A stretch of 64,000 nt of DNA from Deltaproteobacteria bacterium (GCA_003194485.1 PQXD01000009.1:41008-105007), one strand, 5' to 3'; counted from the first letter of the stretch, positions 4,793 to 55,889 are shown. The notes: generated from the letters alone by a model not told the origin. Numbers and translations are program-made.

Positions 4793-4987
4793 GTAAATAT
4801 TCGGTGAACCCTTTATATCCTGCCTTGAAGCGGTTACCTTTTTCCGGGTTTCAAAGCTCACTCATTGCAGACCGGAGAGGCAGTGCAATCCGGCCCGCGA
4901 TCGAAACCCTGCAAAAGGTAAACCGCTCCTGCGGCAGGGCACGGATGGCAACTTCCACAGCGGACCGCGGGTTCACCGAATATTTAC
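4793..4987. mobile_element. MITE family A, full-length 195 bp
   Basis: Perfect 19-bp TIR gtaaatattcggtgaaccc/gggttcaccgaatatttac. Flanks gttgtttt (4785-92) and gttgcttt (4988-95) form a 7/8 TSD. Confidence 0.9.
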
Positions 4988-10092: not shown

Positions 10093-10101
10093 AAGGTCAA
10101 A

Positions 10102-10337
10102 GTAACCGTTCAATGGTTCAAAGGTTTACAGTTCAGAGGTTCAAGGGTTTACCGAAAATTTGAACCGTTGATTCGTGAGTTCTGAATGGAGAAGGCATGA
10201 GAATAGAACAATAGAGCAATGATAAATCAACAATCAACAATCAACAATCCAATGAGGCATGGCACTTGGCCCGAGACCTAACTCGCAAGGTCAAGGGAAG
10301 AAAGGTAACCCTGAACCCTGAACCCTTGAACGGTCAC
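10102..10337. mobile_element. MITE family B (GTAACCGTTCA-type TIR, heptamer-rich), 236 bp, inserted in the gspH leader
   Basis: TIR gtaaccgttcaa / ttgaacggtcac (11/12). Flanks aggtcaaa (10094-101) and aggtcaag (10338-45) form a 7/8 TSD. Internal GGTTCAA-, AATCAAC- and CCCTGAA-type repeats. Confidence 0.8.
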
Positions 10338-10775
10338 AGGTCAAGGGGTTTTACGCTAATTGAGCTCCTCGTGGTACTGGTACTTATAGGCATTTTCAGT
10401 TCCCTGGTCTTTGTGGCAGTTGCCGGCGGGATACTTCGGTCTGAAGAGAGGCGTTTTGTGCAGTCCTTTACACAGACCCTGGTCCGCGCCAGGTCCGCAG
10501 GTCTGGGTAGAGGCGAGGCAGTCAGGTTTTTGATTGATGGTGAGAGCAGGACCTTTTGTGTTGAAGGTCTCAAATGGCAGGATATACCCGAGTCCATAAA
10601 GGTAGAAGGCAAGGGAGTGGGCGCAGTGGAACCAGGTATCCATGCCGTGACCTTTTATCCTGACGGAAGCTCAAGCGGCGGTGAGATTGACCTCAAGTGG
10701 GAAGGAGGTCGCATGGACCGGATAGTGATAGACAGGTTCCTGGGGCTGGTAGGCATGGAGCGCATTTCATCGTGA
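10266..10775 (+). CDS. gspH: T2SS minor pseudopilin GspH with MITE-derived leader
   Basis: RSRG|FTLIELL site and VTFYPDGSSSGG GspH/FimT motif. The only in-frame start is TTG 10266 (GAGG 8 nt upstream), which lies inside the MITE. Confidence 0.85.
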   Translation: MARDLTRKVKGRKVTLNPEPLNGHRSRGFTLIELLVVLVLIGIFSSLVFVAVAGGILRSEERRFVQSFTQTLVRARSAGLGRGEAVRFLIDGESRTFCVEGLKWQDIPESIKVEGKGVGAVEPGIHAVTFYPDGSSSGGEIDLKWEGGRMDRIVIDRFLGLVGMERISS

Positions 10776-23216: not shown

Positions 23217-23320
23217 GTAAATATCCAGTAAACCCGTCCATAGTCCATTGGCAACCGGTCACAGGGTGCTTCTTCTTCCAACATGCTCTCGCCCCTTGTT
23301 TTCTGAGGCCTTTGCAGCCC
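23217..23320. mobile_element. Degenerate left-end remnant of a composite A+B MITE
   Basis: gtaaatatccagtaaaccc TIR variant, followed by gcaaccggtcacagg (B-type TIR) and gccccttgttttct shared with the 48176 element. No right TIR was found and the right boundary is approximate. Confidence 0.6.
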
Positions 23321-38653: not shown

Positions 38654-38849
38654 GTAAATATCCGGTGACCCCGTGGTCCACTGTGGAAGTTGCCATCCGT
38701 GCCCTGCCGCAGGAGCGGTTTGCCTTTTGCAGGGTTTCGATCGCGGGCCGGATTGCACTGCCTCTCCGGTCCGCGATGAGTGAGCTTTGAAACCCGGAAA
38801 AAAGGTAACCGCTTCAAGGCAGGATATAACGGGTTCACCGAATATTTAC
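38654..38849. mobile_element. MITE family A, full-length 196 bp (reverse orientation)
   Basis: TIRs gtaaatatccggtgacccc/gggttcaccgaatatttac. Flanks taaaccgg (38646-53) and taaactgg (38850-57). Confidence 0.9.
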
Positions 38850-41661: not shown

Positions 41662-41856
41662 GTAAATATCCGGTGAACCCGTGGTCCGCTGCGGGAGTTG
41701 CCATCCGTGCCCTGCCGCAGGAGCGGTTTGCCTTTTGCGGGGTTTCAACCGCGGGCCGGATTGCACTGCCTCTCCGGTCTGCGATGAGTGAGCTTTGAAA
41801 CCCGGAAAAAGGTAACCGCTCCAAGGCAGAATATAACGGGTTCACCGAATATTTAC
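41662..41856. mobile_element. MITE family A, full-length 195 bp with perfect TSD
   Basis: TIRs gtaaatatccggtgaaccc/gggttcaccgaatatttac. Identical 8-bp flanks cttacaat (41654-61, 41857-64). Confidence 0.95.
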
Positions 41857-48019: not shown

Positions 48020-48175
48020 ACCTAAGGATCTCCTTAATTAAAAGTATTATCATGCTATCATGGTTATAGAAGCTCTCGCAAGAAATGTGGGCGATTTTAT
48101 TCTCTTGGGCCAATTTCAAAAATATAACTGAATTTGCTGGACGTAATACGAATCGATAAATATTATTAAGGGACA

Positions 48176-48574
48176 GTAAATATTCTTATGAACCCGTGGT
48201 CTCAAGTAACCGTTCACAGGAAGGGGATATTTCTTTTCACTTAACACTTCAGCCCCTTGTTTTCTTAAGGCTTTTGACATGGGGGATGTCCTGCCCCCTC
48301 TGCATTCGCCTTACGCTGCGCTCAGGCGATGCAGTTTCCCCCACAGCAAAAGCCGAGAAAACTACGGGGGCTTCCGTTAAACTGTTCAAAGAAATATCCC
48401 CTGCCAGTGAACGGTTGCCATCCGTGCCCTGCCGCAGGAGCGGTTTGCCTTTTGCGGGGTTTTGGGTAGCGGGCCGGATTGCACTGCCTCTCCGGTCTGC
48501 GATGAGTGAGCTTTGAAACCCGGAAAAAGGTAACCGCTTCAGGGCAGGATATAACGGGTTCACCGAATATTTAC
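48176..48574. mobile_element. Composite MITE (family A, 399 bp) carrying a nested family-B-type element at 48206..48418
   Basis: Outer A TIRs with flanks aagggaca/aagggacc. Inner TIRs gtaaccgttcacaggaaggggatatttctt / aagaaatatcccctgccagtgaacggttgc. Confidence 0.9.
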
Positions 48575-48611
48575 AAGGGACCGGTAATATTGTGAAGAAA
48601 TAGGATTAATT

Positions 48612-50495
48612 ATGCCTGAAGTAACCTTTTTGCCAGCCAATATGACCGTAAAAGCGAACCAGGATGAAAATCTGCTGAGGATAGCCATGAGGGCCGGTGT
48701 ATATATCAATTCCTTATGCGGTGGGGCAGGGGTATGTAACAAGTGCCGCATTCTTCTGGAACGGGGCCGGGTCCGGGGAGAGGCCCTGCCGGAAGGCGGA
48801 TGGAAGGCCTGCGCCACCTTTCCGGTCTCAGACGTGGTGGTCCGTGTACCAGTTGAATATGAAATGGACCGAAAGGTACTCAGGCGGCCGATGGCCAGAA
48901 AGGCTGCATCCTGGATCAAGGCCCAGGAAGAGCCTGTAACCTGGAAGCTGCATCCTGCTGTGCGAAAACGCGTTATTAACCTGCCCCAGCCAAGCCTTCA
49001 GGACAGTGCAAGCGACCTCGACAGGCTGATGCGCGAGATTGTCCAGGGCAGGCTCCAGGCGATTTCAATGGAGGTAGACAGCCAGATTCTCTTTAATTTG
49101 CCGGAATCGATACGGAACAAAGACTGGAGAGTCACTGTCAGCTTAATGGAAGGAGCAAAGAAAGACGTCCGTCGCCTCATTCGTGTGGAGCCTGGTGATG
49201 CAACGGACCAGCATCTTGCCGTGGCCGTGGATATAGGGACTACCACGGTGTCGGCCCAGTTGTTGGATCTCGGGAGCGGAGCGGTCCTGGCAGAGGCATC
49301 CAATTACAATCCGCAGATCAGTTATGGGGAAGATATCATCTCCCGGATGGAGTTTGCCAGAAGAAAAGAGGGCCTGAAGACCCTGCAAAAAAAGATAGCC
49401 GAATGCCTCAATGGGCTCATAGGAGAACTCCTTTCAGATGCGGACCGGGGGAAGGACGCCTTGAGTCTGATTACTGTTGCCGCAAATACCGTAATGATTC
49501 ATCTTCTTCTTGGACTTGATACGCGTTTTTTGAGGACCCAGCCCTATACTCCTGTCGCCACCCGATTCCCTCCGGTAAGGGCCATAGAGTCAGGCATAAA
49601 TGTTCCTGAGCACGTGCGCGTGTTTTTAGGCCCCTGTGTTGCCAGTTACGTCGGTGCGGATATCGTGGCCGGAGTAGTAGGCGTAGGGCTTAACCGCCGC
49701 CCGGAACTTACGCTTTTCATAGATATAGGGACAAACGGAGAGATCGTCCTTGGAAATCAGGACTGGATGGCCTGTGCAGCCTGCTCTGCAGGTCCTGCCT
49801 TTGAGGGGGGCGGCATAAAGCACGGCATGCGAGCCACCACAGGGGCAGTGGAGGTGGTGTACATACATCCCGGGACTTTTGAACCCATGGTCTTGACCAT
49901 TGGCGGCAGAAAGGCCAAGGGAATATGCGGATCAGGCATAATCAGCCTGCTTGCAGGCCTTTTCATGGCAGGTGTGCTGGATCAGCAGGGAAAGTTTCAT
50001 ACCGGCCTGGGGACGAAAAGGGTCCGCTTTGGCAGGGATGGCTGGGAATACGTGGTAATAGAGGCGGAATCCACTTCCATAGGTCAGGATATTGTGTTTA
50101 CAGAGGCAGACATTGAGAATCTCATCAGGGCAAAAGGTGCCATGTTTGCCGGTTATTTTACTTTGCTGGAATCGGTGGGTATGGGATTTGAGGACCTGGA
50201 ACGGGTAATACTGGCCGGCAATTTTGGAAGCTACCTGGATATTGACCAGGCCATCACCATAGGACTCCTTCCGGATATTCCAAGGGACCGATTCTTTTTC
50301 GCAGGCAACAGCTCTCTCCTCGGGGCAAAGGCCTCGGCTGTTTCCCGGTCTGTTATGAAAGAGCTGCACGAGGTCGCTCAGATGATGACACACTTTGACC
50401 TAAGCGATAACCCGAGGTTCATGGAACACTATGTCTCCTGCCTGTTCCTGCCTCATACGGATCAGAAACTGTTCCCCTCAGTCAGGCTGGACTGA
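48612..50495 (+). CDS. ASKHA-domain [2Fe-2S] reductive activator of corrinoid proteins (RACo/DUF4445)
   Basis: CGGAGVCNKC...KAC ferredoxin, AVDIGTTTV, IDIGTNGEI, CSAGPAFEGG, GICGSG and GNSSLLGA. Confidence 0.93.
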   Translation: MPEVTFLPANMTVKANQDENLLRIAMRAGVYINSLCGGAGVCNKCRILLERGRVRGEALPEGGWKACATFPVSDVVVRVPVEYEMDRKVLRRPMARKAASWIKAQEEPVTWKLHPAVRKRVINLPQPSLQDSASDLDRLMREIVQGRLQAISMEVDSQILFNLPESIRNKDWRVTVSLMEGAKKDVRRLIRVEPGDATDQHLAVAVDIGTTTVSAQLLDLGSGAVLAEASNYNPQISYGEDIISRMEFARRKEGLKTLQKKIAECLNGLIGELLSDADRGKDALSLITVAANTVMIHLLLGLDTRFLRTQPYTPVATRFPPVRAIESGINVPEHVRVFLGPCVASYVGADIVAGVVGVGLNRRPELTLFIDIGTNGEIVLGNQDWMACAACSAGPAFEGGGIKHGMRATTGAVEVVYIHPGTFEPMVLTIGGRKAKGICGSGIISLLAGLFMAGVLDQQGKFHTGLGTKRVRFGRDGWEYVVIEAESTSIGQDIVFTEADIENLIRAKGAMFAGYFTLLESVGMGFEDLERVILAGNFGSYLDIDQAITIGLLPDIPRDRFFFAGNSSLLGAKASAVSRSVMKELHEVAQMMTHFDLSDNPRFMEHYVSCLFLPHTDQKLFPSVRLD

Positions 50496-52148
50496 TTTCA
50501 TTGCATTCCTGAAGGCCTCTGCGTAATCTTCCGGGTAGTGACCTGTGATCCATCTTTCCTGCCTTTCGCTGAAAGCACCCGGGGAACGGGATGCTCTGGG
50601 CAGAAAGCAGTAAAAGAGACGCTGGTCCATATCCGGATTGTCGAAACGTTTTGAGATCTCATAGCCCGTGACCATCTGGGCCCCCATACAGTCCAGGGTC
50701 CGGATTACGAGCTCGATGCACTTATCCAGTGACTTTCGGACCTCCGGGTCCGCCTCAAGCACATTACCCACCGGACAAGTGGTCATAATCTGGACCTCGC
50801 CATGGAAGCGCTGGGCCTTGGGGATATGGATCATGACGTTTTCATCCTCGTGAACAATCAAACTTGATGGCAGGTCTTTTTTCCCGTCCAATCTTTTGTT
50901 GGAACGGATTGCCCTTAAATATGTCTTAAAAAAGGGGTGTCCACAGGCCTTTTCGTAAAGAGCGGAAAAGCGGGCCACCTGATCTCCTACTGCATAGGTA
51001 GAGATTGATTTTGAGCCGGCACCCCCTGTATCCACTGATTTCACATTGGGAGGTATAAGGGCAAACTGCTGGTGAATCTGTTGGTGGGATGCATGTAATC
51101 TGTATCCTGATGGAGAGAAATCAAAGCCGTAGTTCCAGCCCCAAAGGGTGGCTGTATAAGGCAGGCCCTCTCCGCTCTCAAGCCTCTTTGCAACTTCCTT
51201 CAGCACTGACTGTCTCATGGATTCAATCTCAGCGACCGGCAAAGTGTTCCTGCCTTCCCGGGAAATTCCCTTCGCAATATCGAGATTGACGGCCATTTGA
51301 GTATAGACCCGCTGGTAATAGAGGTGACGCAGGCCCGTTATATCATCGGGAAGCAGTTCCGCTGCCCTGTACCTCACACAGTCATGAGCCATATTAGATG
51401 CATAATGACCCCATGGAATATAGCTGTCTGCCCTGAGATATTCCCATACGTGTGTCTTGCAGCCGGATGCATATTCGCCGACAATCGGGCTGCTTCCCTG
51501 AATCCCTGGAATTAATACCATGGCAAGCTTATAATTATATGGACAGGCCATATTGTTACCAATCACATCAAAGAGTTCCTGGTCAAATAGGACCGGTTTG
51601 GGATGGCCCAGTTCGTCATACTCATATTTCACGCCAACCGGGTTCCCGCTGTCGTCAAGCTCAAACTTACATGCCAAATGTGCCATCGCCTTGAGGAGCC
51701 TGCTGTCCCTGGATGTCTGGGCCAGGGACAAGAGAACGGGCCTCGGGAGGTCTTTCAGGGAATAAGCCCTTTCGTTCGAACCCTTTAAGCGCCCATTCAA
51801 CAGGTCTTCCAGTAATGGCGAACGCCTGCCGGACCCCTCGTCGCTTCTCCTGAATCCGAGTCTTTTCGGGTCCTTTGAAAATTGCTCTGCCTGATCATAA
51901 AGTATGTATGTGGCACCCCAGAAAGGAAAGGCATTCGGGATCTCATAGACTTTGCCGGCATTGTTGATAACAAGGTCGCCCCTGGGGAAGTTGACCCGGT
52001 TATTAATTGCATTGCCGTCTGAATCATGGCCCAGCACGGCCAAAGTTTCAGTCCGCCTGAGGTTTACAACTTTGTAAGATGGCTCGTGAAGGGCACAAAT
52101 AAAAACCCCTGACGGATCTATGCACGTGCAAAGGATGTCTTGATTCAC
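50478..52148 (-). CDS. Hypothetical protein with GalT/HIT-like nucleotidyltransferase motifs
   Basis: WGWNYG...HASHQQIHQQ and HEDENVMIHIPKAQRFHGEVQI segments. The assignment is an inference. Confidence 0.6.
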   Translation of the reverse strand: MNQDILCTCIDPSGVFICALHEPSYKVVNLRRTETLAVLGHDSDGNAINNRVNFPRGDLVINNAGKVYEIPNAFPFWGATYILYDQAEQFSKDPKRLGFRRSDEGSGRRSPLLEDLLNGRLKGSNERAYSLKDLPRPVLLSLAQTSRDSRLLKAMAHLACKFELDDSGNPVGVKYEYDELGHPKPVLFDQELFDVIGNNMACPYNYKLAMVLIPGIQGSSPIVGEYASGCKTHVWEYLRADSYIPWGHYASNMAHDCVRYRAAELLPDDITGLRHLYYQRVYTQMAVNLDIAKGISREGRNTLPVAEIESMRQSVLKEVAKRLESGEGLPYTATLWGWNYGFDFSPSGYRLHASHQQIHQQFALIPPNVKSVDTGGAGSKSISTYAVGDQVARFSALYEKACGHPFFKTYLRAIRSNKRLDGKKDLPSSLIVHEDENVMIHIPKAQRFHGEVQIMTTCPVGNVLEADPEVRKSLDKCIELVIRTLDCMGAQMVTGYEISKRFDNPDMDQRLFYCFLPRASRSPGAFSERQERWITGHYPEDYAEAFRNAMKSVQPD

Positions 52149-52314
52149 ATTACTCCATCCTCAATAATAAATATTTATGAGTTATTTCCATTGACTCCAG
52201 ATATCTCTTTATACTTGTACAGTCAAGGTGCAGACGATTATTCCAAGATTATAAACAATTTGCACGAGTAAATCATGTCCTGATCGAATATGTTATAGTT
52301 AATCATCGGAGGAG

Positions 52315-52376
52315 AATTTTGAATGGTGAATTAATAATTTAAAATCTTATAACTTTTTCCTCCATAATTCAAAATT
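52315..52376. repeat. AT-rich heptamer-type inverted repeat upstream of rtcA
   Basis: aattttgaat (52315-24) / attcaaaatt (52367-76). Confidence 0.45.
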
Positions 52377-52430
52377 TAGCATTCAGTAACTCAGCATCAT
52401 AATCTATTAATGTCTGGTATGTAAAAAAAC

Positions 52431-53465
52431 ATGATTATTATCGACGGTTCCTATGGAGAGGGAGGGGGCCAGATTCTGAGGAGCTCCCTGGCCCTTTCCA
52501 TGATCACCGGACAGGCTATTGAAATCCTGAATATTCGTGCCAGGAGGCCGAAGCCCGGCCTTCGTCCACAGCATCTGACTTGTGTAAAAGCGGCTGCCTC
52601 GGTATGTGGAGCCCGGCTGGAAGGAGCTGAGTTCGGTTCGCAGCGCCTGGTATTTATCCCGGGTAAAGTAAAACCGGGTAATTATAGCTTTGCCGTAGGT
52701 ACCGCCGGCTCTGTCATGCTGGTTTTTCAGACCGTACTTCTTCCTCTGGCCCTTTCCCCCGGCCCTTCTGAGATTACTTTTACAGGCGGCACCCATGTCC
52801 CGTGGAGTCCGTGCTTTCACTATATTGACCTTGTATTTAGGCCTGCCGTATCTGCCATGGGAATATTATTTGAAATGGAGCTTGAGAGATGGGGTTACTA
52901 CCCAAAAGGAGAGGGGATAGTAAGGACAAGAATTCTGCCGTCAGAGGGTCTCGGTTCCTTCAGGCCGGTTCCCCGGAGAGGAGAAAGAGTCTGCGTTAAG
53001 GCCATTTCGGCCACGGCCTGCCTGCCTGGCCACGTCAGGAAAAGGCAGTCCGCACGAGTAAAATCTGTTTTGGAGGGCAGAGAAATCGAGGTAGATGTAG
53101 AAGAAATGGAGGGATCTGCCATGTGCCCGGGCAGCCTCCTGTTCTGCTGGATATCCGGTCAGGGGAGATATGGTGGTTTCACCGGGCTGGGCGCAAGAGG
53201 CAAGCCTGCCGAGAAGGTTGCTGATGAAGCGGTTTCCGGACTATTGGCCTTTCTGGACAGTGGCGCAGCCTGCGACAAATACCTTTCTGATCAAATACTG
53301 CTCCCGGCAGTGCTTGCACGTGGAGAGAGTCAATGGTCCACAAACTCTATAAGCAATCACCTTCTCACAAACATATGGGTGACCGGACGCTTTGGGCTCG
53401 GCAAGGTGAAGCTGCTGGAAGAAGACGGGAAATCCGGCTTGATCAAATGTTACGGAACCGATTAA
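52431..53465 (+). CDS. rtcA: RNA 3'-terminal phosphate cyclase
   Basis: IDGSYGEGGGQILR, RPKPGLRPQH, TAGSV.LVFQ, GGTHV, GYYPKG, YLSDQ and HLLTN. Confidence 0.96.
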   Translation: MIIIDGSYGEGGGQILRSSLALSMITGQAIEILNIRARRPKPGLRPQHLTCVKAAASVCGARLEGAEFGSQRLVFIPGKVKPGNYSFAVGTAGSVMLVFQTVLLPLALSPGPSEITFTGGTHVPWSPCFHYIDLVFRPAVSAMGILFEMELERWGYYPKGEGIVRTRILPSEGLGSFRPVPRRGERVCVKAISATACLPGHVRKRQSARVKSVLEGREIEVDVEEMEGSAMCPGSLLFCWISGQGRYGGFTGLGARGKPAEKVADEAVSGLLAFLDSGAACDKYLSDQILLPAVLARGESQWSTNSISNHLLTNIWVTGRFGLGKVKLLEEDGKSGLIKCYGTD

Positions 53466-53559
53466 GACATCCTGGAAATTTGCAATCCGTTGTAATCATC
53501 GGTATCCGGCGTCAGTCGGCCTTTGCCGCCATTACGGAACGATAGGATCAAGAGGAGAT

Positions 53560-53958
53560 GTAAATATCCGGTGAACCCGTTATATCCTGCCTTGAAGCGG
53601 TTGCCTTTTTCCGGGTTTCAAAGCTCACTCATCGCGGACCGGAGAGGCAGTGCAATCCGGCCCGCGATCGAAACCCTGCAAAAGGCAAACCGCTCCTGCG
53701 GCAGGGCGCGGATGGCAACCGTTCACAGGAAGGGGATATTTCTTTGAACAGTTTATAACGGAAGCCCCCGTAGTTTTCTCGGCTTTTGCTGTGGGGGAAA
53801 CTGCATCGCCTTAAGCGCAGCGTAGGGCGAATGCAGAGGGGGCAGGACATCCCCCATGTCAAAAGCCTTAAGAAAACAAGGGGCTGAAGTGTGAAGTGAA
53901 AAGAAATATCCCCTTCCGTGAACGGTTATGTAGGGTCACGGGTTCACCGGATATTTAC
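53560..53958. mobile_element. Composite MITE (family A, 399 bp) with nested element at 53715..53929
   Basis: Near reverse complement of 48176..48574. Flanks gaggagat/aaggagat. Confidence 0.9.
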
Positions 53959-53972
53959 AAGGAGATAAAAAT

Positions 53973-55889
53973 TTGGCCATGAATCTACCCTATGTCACAG
54001 GAAGGCCCTATCCTCTGGATGCAGCAAGTATTTTAAAAGGCCTTACTGATATAGAATGCTTTGTATTTCTTGAAACTTCAAGGGTTGCCGGAGAAGAGAA
54101 TACCTCATACCTATTTTTAAATCCAATAAAAATCCTTACTGCATACGGCCCTGATGATCTGGAGCCTCTTTACAAATCCATGGAGACGGCCATTGACAGA
54201 GGATACTATCTGGCCGGATGGTGGGCCTATGAATGGGGATATGCCCTTGAGCCCAAATTATATCACCTCCTGGACGCGCTCAGACCCAAGGCCCCCCTGG
54301 TATGGCTCGGTGTGTTTGAGAACCCGAAGATATGGATTCATAAGCCCGACGCCCCTTTTTGCCCTTTAAAAAATATTCCGGATATCCGGAAGAAATTAGG
54401 ACCTCTGAAACTGGAGGTAGAAAAAGAACGATACATCAGGGCTATAGACTGTATAAAGGACTATATAGCCGGCGGTCATACCTATCAGGTCAACTATACC
54501 TTAAGGGGAAGGTTTGACTACACCGGTCTTCCATCTGATCTCTATCTGTCGCTCAGGGCCCGGCAGTCTGTTTCTTACGGGGCGGTGATACGCAACAGGA
54601 AAAAATGGCTCCTTTCCCTCTCCCCGGAACTTTTCTTTCGCCTGGAAGGGCGAAAGATCTGGTCCAAACCCATGAAGGGCACATTAAAGAGAGGAAGGAC
54701 AATAGACGAAGATCGTGAACTGGCTCGTTTTCTGGCCAATGATCCCAAGAACCGGGCAGAAAACATCATGATTGTTGATCTGCTTCGAAACGATATAGGG
54801 AGGCTCTCTCTCCCCGGAACGGTCCGGGTACCGGAGATCTTTACCGTTGAGCGCTATGAAACCCTCTTTCAAATGACATCCAGGATAGAGGGAGAAATTC
54901 GCCCGGGCACATCCTGGCATGAGATCTTTAAGGCCCTGTTTCCGTGCGGATCTGTGACCGGTGCACCAAAGATCCGGACAATGGAGATCATCTCCGAGAT
55001 CGAGTCCTCTCCAAGGGGCGTATATACCGGTGCCATAGGATTCATTTCACCCCGCAGAAGGGCGGTGCTGAATGTGGCCATCAGGACAGTGGTCCTGGAC
55101 GGAGAATCAGGAGAGCTCGGGATAGGAAGCGGGATAACAATAGATTCAGATCCTGCAAGAGAATACGATGAGTGCAGACTTAAGGCCAGATTCCTGACAG
55201 ATCCTCTTTACTTTCCCCATCTTGAAAAGGGTGAAACAAGGAAGGATTTTTCCCTTATAGAGACCATGAGGTGGGACCCTGTAAGGAGAGAGCAGGAAGT
55301 CACAGAGGGCTACTTCCTGCTGGAAAGGCATCTTGAAAGGCTCTCGCAATCCGCTCATTATTTCGCCTTTTACCTGGACCTGAAAAAGGTGAGAAGGGAG
55401 CTGGCTGAATTCGCAAGAGGCCTCTACCCTGAAAGAAGACCCCATCGGGTCCGCATGTTGTTGGGAAGAGACGGTTCTTTGACTGTTTCAGCCTCTGCTC
55501 TATCCATGCAGGAAAAGCAGGTCTATTTTGACCTGTCTGCAAAGGCAGTCGACTCTCAAGACCCTTTTTTATATCACAAAACCACATACAGGCCTCTGTT
55601 CACTGAAGAATACCAAAGGGCCAAGACCCGCGGTCTCTTCGACTGCGTGTTTGTAAACGAGCGCGGCGAGCTTACTGAAGGTTCTATCAGCAATATATTT
55701 CTGGAAATTAATGGCGGACTCGTCACCCCTCCGGTATCAAGCGGGCTCCTGAACGGCACCTTTCGCCAGGAACTTGTGGAGCAAGGCCGTGCCAGTGAGC
55801 ATGTGCTCTATCCGGATGACATGAATAAGGCCACAGCGATATATTTGGGGAACTCGGTACGCGGGCTCTTGAGAGCAAGCTGCAAATGA
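53973..55889 (+). CDS. pabB: Aminodeoxychorismate synthase component I fused to ADC lyase (PabB-PabC)
   Basis: YQVNYT, SLSPELFF, KPMKGT, KNRAENIMIVDLLRND, GSVTGAPK, then HKTTYR...LTEGSISNIF...GLLNGT class IV aminotransferase. Confidence 0.93.
   Translation: MAMNLPYVTGRPYPLDAASILKGLTDIECFVFLETSRVAGEENTSYLFLNPIKILTAYGPDDLEPLYKSMETAIDRGYYLAGWWAYEWGYALEPKLYHLLDALRPKAPLVWLGVFENPKIWIHKPDAPFCPLKNIPDIRKKLGPLKLEVEKERYIRAIDCIKDYIAGGHTYQVNYTLRGRFDYTGLPSDLYLSLRARQSVSYGAVIRNRKKWLLSLSPELFFRLEGRKIWSKPMKGTLKRGRTIDEDRELARFLANDPKNRAENIMIVDLLRNDIGRLSLPGTVRVPEIFTVERYETLFQMTSRIEGEIRPGTSWHEIFKALFPCGSVTGAPKIRTMEIISEIESSPRGVYTGAIGFISPRRRAVLNVAIRTVVLDGESGELGIGSGITIDSDPAREYDECRLKARFLTDPLYFPHLEKGETRKDFSLIETMRWDPVRREQEVTEGYFLLERHLERLSQSAHYFAFYLDLKKVRRELAEFARGLYPERRPHRVRMLLGRDGSLTVSASALSMQEKQVYFDLSAKAVDSQDPFLYHKTTYRPLFTEEYQRAKTRGLFDCVFVNERGELTEGSISNIFLEINGGLVTPPVSSGLLNGTFRQELVEQGRASEHVLYPDDMNKATAIYLGNSVRGLLRASCK

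Follow-up and report, generated by a model that had tools for sequence, protein, structure and literature searches.

How does a MITE (miniature inverted-repeat transposable element) that carries another MITE inside it come to be repeated across a bacterial genome? The question is raised by two 399-bp elements at positions 48,176 to 53,958 of a 64,000-nucleotide stretch of DNA from a Deltaproteobacteria bacterium (GCA_003194485.1, PQXD01000009.1:41008-105007). This whole stretch, which we refer to as the window, corresponds to C87:41008-105007 in an assembly (G000) that comprises 87 contigs and 2.55 Mb. An earlier note on the window had proposed that each element is the shell of one MITE (family A) with a second MITE (B) nested within it, that the nesting happened once, and that the composite then spread. 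We find that the composite, A::B, is most probably a nested pair of MITEs derived from the IS66 family of insertion sequences (ISs), and that the pair most probably behaves as one transposon.

Both elements could be located, in opposite orientation, and they share 92.8% identity from end to end (Table 1). Each is bounded by GTAAATAT...ATATTTAC. The ends of the family-A shell are GTAAATAT..GTGAACCCGT, and terminal repeats of 21 to 22 nt (GTAAATATYCGGTGAACCCGT...ACGGGTTCACCGRATATTTAC) are present in both window copies and in 117 intact shells in the genome. Relative to the solo A element at 41662-41856, each composite begins with A positions 1 to about 26, then has a short linker and an insert of 211 to 213 nt, and continues with A from 36 to 195; the left arm of A in the composites is 29 to 30 nt long. 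The insert has the ends GTAACCGTTCAC / GTGAACGGTT (composite 2 reads ATAACC), and it adjoins ...GCCATCCG (reverse complement CGGATGGC) in both composites. Thus, as the earlier note had described, a B-type element lies at one internal site and in the same relative orientation in both copies. The repeats do not extend past the termini of the elements, the flanks of the two copies are unrelated, and the target site duplications (TSDs) are different: copy 1 has AAGGGACA/AAGGGACC and copy 2 has GAGGAGAT/AAGGAGAT, with matches at 7 of 8 positions in both cases. Reading frames of about 105 amino acids lie inside the composite, and a scan of the window against Rfam had a tRNA as its sole match. Composite 2 is also found in two metagenome contigs from the same species (L065 and L079).

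Table 1. Coordinates, within the window, of the two nested elements, their parts, and related elements. TIR, terminal inverted repeat.
Feature	Position	Strand	Basis or remark
Composite 1, A::B nested MITE, 399 bp	48176..48574	+	Sequence comparison, fold
Composite 1, left TSD copy AAGGGACA, 8 bp	48168..48175	.	Single copy, no element in sister genomes
Composite 1, right TSD copy AAGGGACC	48575..48582	.	
Composite 1, A left arm: TIR variant GTAAATATTCTTATGAACCCGT, then linker GGTCTCAA	48176..48205	+	
Composite 1, inner MITE B, 211 nt, whole-length hairpin	48206..48416	+	Ends GTAACCGTTCAC / shortened GTGAACGGTT
Composite 1, A core and right TIR, A positions from about 38 to 195	48417..48574	+	94% identity to solo A 36-195
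Composite 2, A::B nested MITE, 399 bp	53560..53958	-	Sequence comparison
Composite 2, TSD copy GAGGAGAT	53552..53559	.	
Composite 2, second TSD copy AAGGAGAT; doubles as Shine-Dalgarno-like sequence of pabB-pabC fusion	53959..53966	.	
Composite 2, A core and right end	53560-53716	-	
Composite 2, inner B	53717-53929	-	
Composite 2, A left arm	53930-53958	-	
Reference solo A MITE, 195 bp, perfect TSD CTTACAAT	41662..41856	+	
Solo A MITE, TSD TAAACCGG/TAAACTGG	38654..38849	+	
Solo A MITE, TSD AAAGCAAC/AAAACAAC	4793..4987	-	
5' fragment of A::B' (A left arm and first ~70 nt of B')	23217..23318	+	84-87% identity, A::B' positions 1-105
Family-D MITE, gspH leader, ends GTAACCGTTCAA...TTGAACGGTCAC	10101..10338	+	B-type terminal 12-mer 11/12

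The earlier note had suggested a genome-wide census of the solo and composite forms, a phylogeny of the copies, and folding. The census found 63 intact solo A elements, 32 intact A::B composites, and no intact solo B in the 2.55-Mb genome. Overall, there are 334 A-type termini, and the 214 loci with DNA of the A and B families add up to 45 kb (1.8% of the genome). Given these numbers of termini and loci, this is a repeat family whose abundance is far beyond chance. TSDs that match at 7 or more of 8 positions flank 49 of the solo A elements (36 are perfect) and 23 of the A::B composites (15 are perfect), and the 8-bp TSD sequences are unique in 95 of 96 cases. The genome also contains six composites of A with related inner elements (A::B' or A::B''), about six triples (A::B'::B), of which four have a perfect TSD, and a few internally rearranged shells. 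Within the A family, the A::B composite ranks second in abundance. These elements have the usual properties of MITEs: TIRs, 8-bp TSDs that differ from copy to copy, small size (195 or 399 bp), high copy number, and empty sites. We also considered REP/BIME repeats, which are mobilized by RAYT and are short imperfect palindromes of about 20 to 40 nt that have no TSD and are associated with a RAYT gene; judged by size (195 to 399 bp), 8-bp TSDs, and IS66-type ends, the elements do not belong to them.

Is B a MITE in its own right? Solo B elements are present in six congeneric genomes (G004, G006, G007, G010, G013, and G017), where they are about 85% identical to B and have the complete ends GTAACCGTTCAC...GTGAACGGTTAC. 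The solo B in G013 (locus L007) has a perfect 8/8 TSD, AAAACCCT. Solo A is present in the sister genomes G005 and G010, with the TSD GACTGTCC in G010. Because sister species have B as well as A in solo form, B is, judging from these sequences, a separate and genuine MITE that entered A, which agrees with the earlier note. The remnants of B in G000 are one right-truncated relic with a flank that is not A (C23:2443) and a few 5'-truncated composites. A subfamily, B' (ends GTAACCGGTCAC), is about 72% identical to B and occurs as a solo element with full terminal repeats in G000. We did not find any composite among 41 relatives, and the diagnostic junction between B and A had no match in 185,579 species genomes. 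A search for the pattern of the A ends in the species genomes returned just two contigs from metagenome-assembled genomes, which are named as Thermodesulfobacteriota/Deltaproteobacteria; one of them is from Guaymas.

The number of nestings can be read from the junctions. The right junction, from B to A, is GTGAACGGTT followed directly by GCC(A/G)TC in 56 of 56 genomic cases. Compared with a full B end (GGTTAC), the expected target duplicate, and the A sequence ...GGAAGTTGCC, about 15 nt are missing. The missing part includes the final AC of B and the inner TSD, and the loss is bounded by a GTT microhomology. B is not flanked by an inner TSD in A::B, where the right junction reads GTGAACGGTT followed by GCCATCC; we read its loss as a secondary deletion. 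Because separate insertions would not each have led to this deletion, it points to a single origin of A::B, after which B would have been locked inside A. For B, then, the proposal that nesting happened once holds. The left junction is more variable. CCCATGTGC or CCCAC is followed by GTAACCG, CCACTGTGCA by GACCG, CCATTCCGCA by AACCG, and GACCCTAC by ATAACCG; all of these can be derived from CCCATGTGC plus GTAACCG via small indels and substitutions. A::B' is organized differently: it keeps an inner 8-bp TSD (GTCCAYTG), B' lies 3 to 4 nt upstream of the site of B, and the divergence of the A core is 12 to 14%. A::B' is a separate, older, and independent nesting. The fragment at 23217 belongs to it as well. 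The earlier note had taken this fragment for a decayed third version of the composite, but the ~100-bp fragment is rather a piece of A::B' (84 to 87% identical to its positions 1 to 105), and against A::B it has a 23-nt match only.

The composite spread as a unit, as the earlier note had proposed. Besides the identical right junctions, the 32 intact copies have distinct outer TSDs, and sites without the element were found both in sister species and within the species. Eight sister genomes align straight across the position of copy 1 and contain a single target copy, AAAGAACC, and no element; the flanks of copy 2 are not syntenic in sister genomes. The junction pattern also retrieved 80 metagenome contigs that are 95 to 99.8% identical to G000 and so belong to the same species. 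Contigs L070 and L072 contain a composite with the TSD GGTCATAA, and the corresponding site in G000 (C11:258023) is empty.

The copies also seem to recombine with each other. At C77:1620, a right-truncated copy of A has the solo form (GTGGTCCACTGTGGAAGTTGCC) in G000 and the A::B form in contig L082, and the two alleles have locus-specific variants and the truncation in common. Because transposition of B (there is no functional inner end and no solo donor) and simple deletion are both excluded, we infer that this switch is due to ectopic gene conversion from another copy. An assembly chimera is unlikely at this locus because the A arm is short (30 nt) and there are locus-specific variants nearby. 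At C44:20409, the element in G000 is an A::B' whose shell is old, and the one in contig L075 is a triple, the right part of which belongs to the young A::B type. This fits with a recombinational origin of the triples, or it could be an assembly chimera.

More broadly, the end variants CCGG, TTCGG, and TTCTTAT are found at either end of the elements in G000, in nearly all combinations and with each type of junction. Together with the solo and composite alleles at C77, these combinations bear out the earlier note's suggestion of modular recombination. The TTCTTAT left end is enriched in composites (12 of 32, versus 3 of 63 solos; Fisher P = 9e-5), which suggests a founder shell that was later unlinked. 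The A cores of solos and composites are intermixed in a tree and are equally diverged (6.2 to 6.7%), as would result from gene conversion. Between strains, the module content differs in 1 or 2 of about 26 comparable orthologous elements, and conversion looks rarer than stable inheritance. Strains also differ in other ways. One composite locus (C9:27664-28060 in G000) has an extra 177 bp in a conspecific strain (L091:1479-2050); these are a partial duplication of the A core plus a fragment ending in GTAACCTCTCAATAATTGAGG, from further rearrangement or nesting. Insertions of 594 bp (C33:40795-41390) and 821 bp (C22:81713-82535) in G000, which start with ...AAACCACTACCTGCTGAAAGCAGGTAGATTTC..., are absent from the same-species metagenome contigs L087, L118, and L064.

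Which transposase could move these elements? TIRs that start with GTAA and an 8-bp duplication are traits of the IS66 family, according to the descriptions in ISfinder, and both A and B have them. For example, ISDge4, from the single-ORF (open reading frame) ISBst12 group of IS66, has TIRs that start with GTAA or GTGA (GTGACTACTCAGCA/GTAACTGCTCAGCA) and an 8-bp direct repeat, CCTCGATG (PMC12898284). ISs with matching ends are present in sister genomes. The A-type IS, in G007 (locus L016, 343-3078), is 2,736 bp long, is bounded by GTAAATATTCGGT(A/G)AACCTGT, and encodes DDE_Tnp_IS66 (PF03050; E = 2.6e-58) along with a DruA/DUF4338-like protein. The B-type IS, in G010 (locus L025, 111-1758), is 1,648 bp long, is bounded by GTAACCGTTCACTCCCCCC / GTAATCATTCACTCCCCCC, and has a single ORF, which also encodes DDE_Tnp_IS66 (PF03050; E = 1.2e-31). 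The earlier note had suggested that the two lineages share machinery. This is correct at the level of the IS66 family, but the A and B ends correspond to separate ISs, whose transposases are just 22% identical. After the loss of the inner end of B, the composite would be movable via the ends of A only; we infer that the acting transposase is the A-type IS66-family enzyme.

Further relatives of these ISs are present. A DruA (Druantia, DUF4338)-like ORF lies beside a transposase in both G007 (L016:422-1294) and G000 (C27:858-1724). The two ORFs are alike (69% identical) though the transposases and the terminal repeats differ. There is also a third GTAA-ended family, with the ends GTAACTTCTCAATAAG. 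It includes a 3-kb IS66-family IS in G010 (L029:259-3270), an interrupted IS in G000 (C54:~2240), and short MITE derivatives, and it occurs elsewhere as well. The element that breaks the sole IS66-family transposase gene of G000 is MITE-like and about 250 bp long (TATACACAGCGTCATAAGTAATTGCC...; C54:3180-3334 / C27:1-130). The copy of this element at C11:116852-117102 in G000 is absent from the same-species contigs L102 and L116.

We propose that the composite arose as follows. A B element (a hairpin MITE of ~213 bp, GTAACCGTTCAC...GTGAACGGTTAC) would have inserted into a 195-bp A element, just inside its left TIR, after ...GGTCCACTGTG(C). A small deletion at the right inner junction would then have removed the last two bases of B, the inner 8-bp TSD, and about 5 nt of A, which would have left B immobile. 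The resulting 399-bp A::B, with intact A ends, would have been copied in trans by an A-type IS66-family transposase, with its own 8-bp TSD at each new site, and would have amplified in parallel with solo A. Ectopic gene conversion may shuttle the B module among the A copies, and it may build mosaics and the triples A::B'::B.

Several points count against this proposal. Using tblastn, we found neither an A-type nor a B-type transposase in the elements or elsewhere in G000, so the mobilizing enzyme was not observed. The sole IS66-family transposase of G000 (at the end of C54 and the start of C27) has the ends GTAACTTCTCAATAAG and is interrupted by a small element. For 96 elements, the tree inferred from the 140-nt A core by maximum likelihood had no starred branch and an unresolved topology. 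The phylogeny therefore does not settle whether the composites are monophyletic, and the case for a single origin comes from the shared junction and not from the tree. G000 was assembled from short metagenome reads, as were the contigs used for comparison, so repeat-induced chimeras are possible, especially at C44:20409. Finally, some of the composite copies may be resident solos that were converted instead of transpositions of the composite.

We weighed other explanations for the composites. A segmental duplication or inversion that produced both 399-bp copies would account for their high identity (93%) and for nothing else, and we give it practically no chance. The homology stops exactly at the GTAAAT...ATTTAC ends, each copy has a separate 8-bp TSD, the 32 intact copies are at unrelated loci, and sister genomes have no element where copy 1 lies. 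Shared flanks are what the earlier note had named as evidence for such a duplication; because the flanks turned out to be unrelated, it is excluded. It is also very improbable that the 399-bp form is ancestral, with solo A as the product of an internal deletion and B never independent. This would fit with the lack of an intact solo B in G000, where there is only the truncated relic at C23:2443. Also, the right end of B (GTGAACGGTTGCC) resembles the GTGGAAGTTGCC of solo A, and a deletion could give a near-solo A. However, solo B with complete TIRs, an 8-bp TSD, and no A around it is found in six sister species, and solo A with the same GTGGAAGTTGCC is found in sister species that have no composites. 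Furthermore, a separate IS of the IS66 family ends in the terminal 12-mer of B, the inner TSD of A::B' is the signature of an insertion, and the CCACTGTGGAA / CCACTGTGGAAGTTGCC of solo A cannot be regained by simply deleting B.

The remaining explanations concern how the composites multiplied. Repeated and independent insertion of B into resident A elements at a hot spot would not have yielded, each time, the loss of the inner TSD and of the terminal AC of B that is seen at all 56 junctions. G000 has no mobile solo B to act as the donor, and conspecific strains have a composite versus an empty site, with no solo intermediate. We consider recurrent insertion to be highly unlikely, even though at least two independent nestings, by related elements, lie within 3 to 4 nt of each other in A (B' after GGTCCACTG and B after GGTCCACTGTGC) and the tree mixes the A cores of solos with those of composites. 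A scenario in which gene conversion accounts for most of the spread, with few transpositions and with most A::B copies being converted resident solo A elements, has more in its favor: the immobile copy at C77 is solo in G000 and composite in L082, C44:20409 switches between A::B' and a triple, the end and junction variants form mosaics, and the solo and composite A cores are equally diverged. We nevertheless think it unlikely. The composite in L070 and L072 corresponds to an empty site in G000 (C11), the module differs in only 1 or 2 of about 26 comparable orthologous elements, and the enrichment of TTCTTAT in composites persists (P = 9e-5), which argues that a link to the founder survives.

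Alongside the proposal of a nested pair that transposes as one element, we tentatively entertain a broader idea. The A copies might form a recombining population in which conversion moves B or B' into and out of fixed loci, including dead ones; or the conserved hairpin itself might be selected, as a structured RNA in the 5' untranslated region or as a DNA substrate. If the copies do recombine in this way, a nested MITE that is frozen would still go on spreading, with no need for transposition, and A::B'::B would have been built by recombination.

The composite folds far better than shuffled sequences do: as DNA, composite 1 has a predicted folding energy of -104.7 kcal/mol (z = -11.8 versus shuffled) and forms two hairpins that are closed by the TIRs of A. 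For solo A, the corresponding values are -57.7 kcal/mol and z = -8.1. The hairpin of B sits at the base of the terminal stem of A and leaves the fold of A intact. Across B, the B of sister species, and B', double compensatory changes affect 17 of 65 predicted pairs; compensatory pairs are usual for palindromic MITEs.

Both copies in the window lie upstream of genes. Copy 1 is 37 nt upstream of the gene for RACo, a corrinoid activator. Copy 2 is directly upstream of a pabB-pabC fusion, and its TSD repeats a Shine-Dalgarno-like AGGAG. Because the TSD duplicates this sequence, the fusion gene would keep its ribosome-binding site and gain a 399-bp hairpin-rich leader. At window positions 53952-53980, the start codon of pabB-pabC is either TTG at 53973 or ATG at 53979, and the TSD, GAGGAGAT / AAGGAGAT, duplicates the Shine-Dalgarno-like sequence. 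A scan for promoters and terminators gave counts that were not above the shuffled background. Between the two composites, a 556-amino-acid ORF (window 50478-52148, minus strand) had no match in Pfam at E ≤ 0.001.

The earlier note had also matched the inner TIR to that of an element in the leader of gspH. The terminal 12-mers do agree at 11 of 12 positions (GTAACCGTTCAA versus GTAACCGTTCAC), but beyond the 12-mer nothing is in common. G000 contains at least two further MITE families, C and D, with the terminal 12-mer GTAA(C/G)CGTTCAC. Family C is about 157 bp (GTAACCGTTCACGGGGTTACAACGCC... / GTAAGCGTTCACAGGGCACCGC...; for example, C2:3217-3371 and C6:38630-38784). Family D, including the copy in the gspH leader, has tandem GGTTCA-type repeats.

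Nested MITEs are familiar from plants, where Tourist and Stowaway elements are found in each other and a nested form occasionally amplifies, which gives rise to a new and longer subfamily. The case described here differs in that the host is a bacterium, the elements are related to IS66 and not to PIF or Mariner, the junction deletion is directly visible, and modules appear to be gained and lost by conversion at the level of strains. In bacteria, the pneumococcal BOX elements (boxA-boxBn-boxC) are similar in having variable inner modules between conserved ends, as in A, A::B, A::B', and A::B'::B. However, the BOX modules are not independent transposons, whereas the inner modules here are MITEs with their own TIRs and with TSDs in relatives, and the outer shell has canonical 8-bp TSDs. 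Compared with the IS66 ISs, including the ISBst12 group (ISDge4), our elements have GTAA ends, 8-bp TSDs, and end-matching ISs in G007 and G010, but they are 195 to 400 bp long, are non-coding, and occupy roughly 200 loci, and the cognate transposases were not detected in the assembly. Also, the A-type IS has a DruA/DUF4338-like second ORF, in contrast to the classical tnpA/tnpB of the IS66 family.

Several bacterial MITEs, such as Nezha (in Anabaena and Nostoc), Chunjie (in Geobacter uraniireducens), Correia, ERIC, and RUP, are small and have no transposase (PMC3184786). Our elements resemble them in having TIRs, TSDs of fixed length, hairpins that fold strongly, mainly intergenic locations, and empty sites (PMC3184786). 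In contrast to these MITEs, the inner MITE here is locked by the loss of its end, and the pair and the triples amplify as a unit. The word "nested" does not appear in the reviews of prokaryotic MITEs that we examined (including PMC3184786), and a literature search on nested MITEs in prokaryotes returned nothing useful. Overall, this is a known kind of element. Its variant features, which are the junction deletion, the triples, the parental IS types, and the switching of modules between strains, make it modestly interesting.

This locus offers a clean and datable bacterial case of how a longer MITE subfamily is born: by nesting, loss of the inner end, and amplification. Such births are well known in plants, but there are barely any descriptions of them from prokaryotes or from the IS66 family. 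Here, both of the likely parental IS types were identified in sister genomes. The host belongs to an uncultured lineage from hydrothermal sediment. These repeats make up 1.8% of its small genome and lie directly upstream of genes (RACo and pabBC), which matters for annotation, for breaks in metagenome assemblies, and possibly for gene expression. Finally, the switch between solo and composite forms at C77 suggests that MITE families in bacteria are shaped by concerted evolution through gene conversion.

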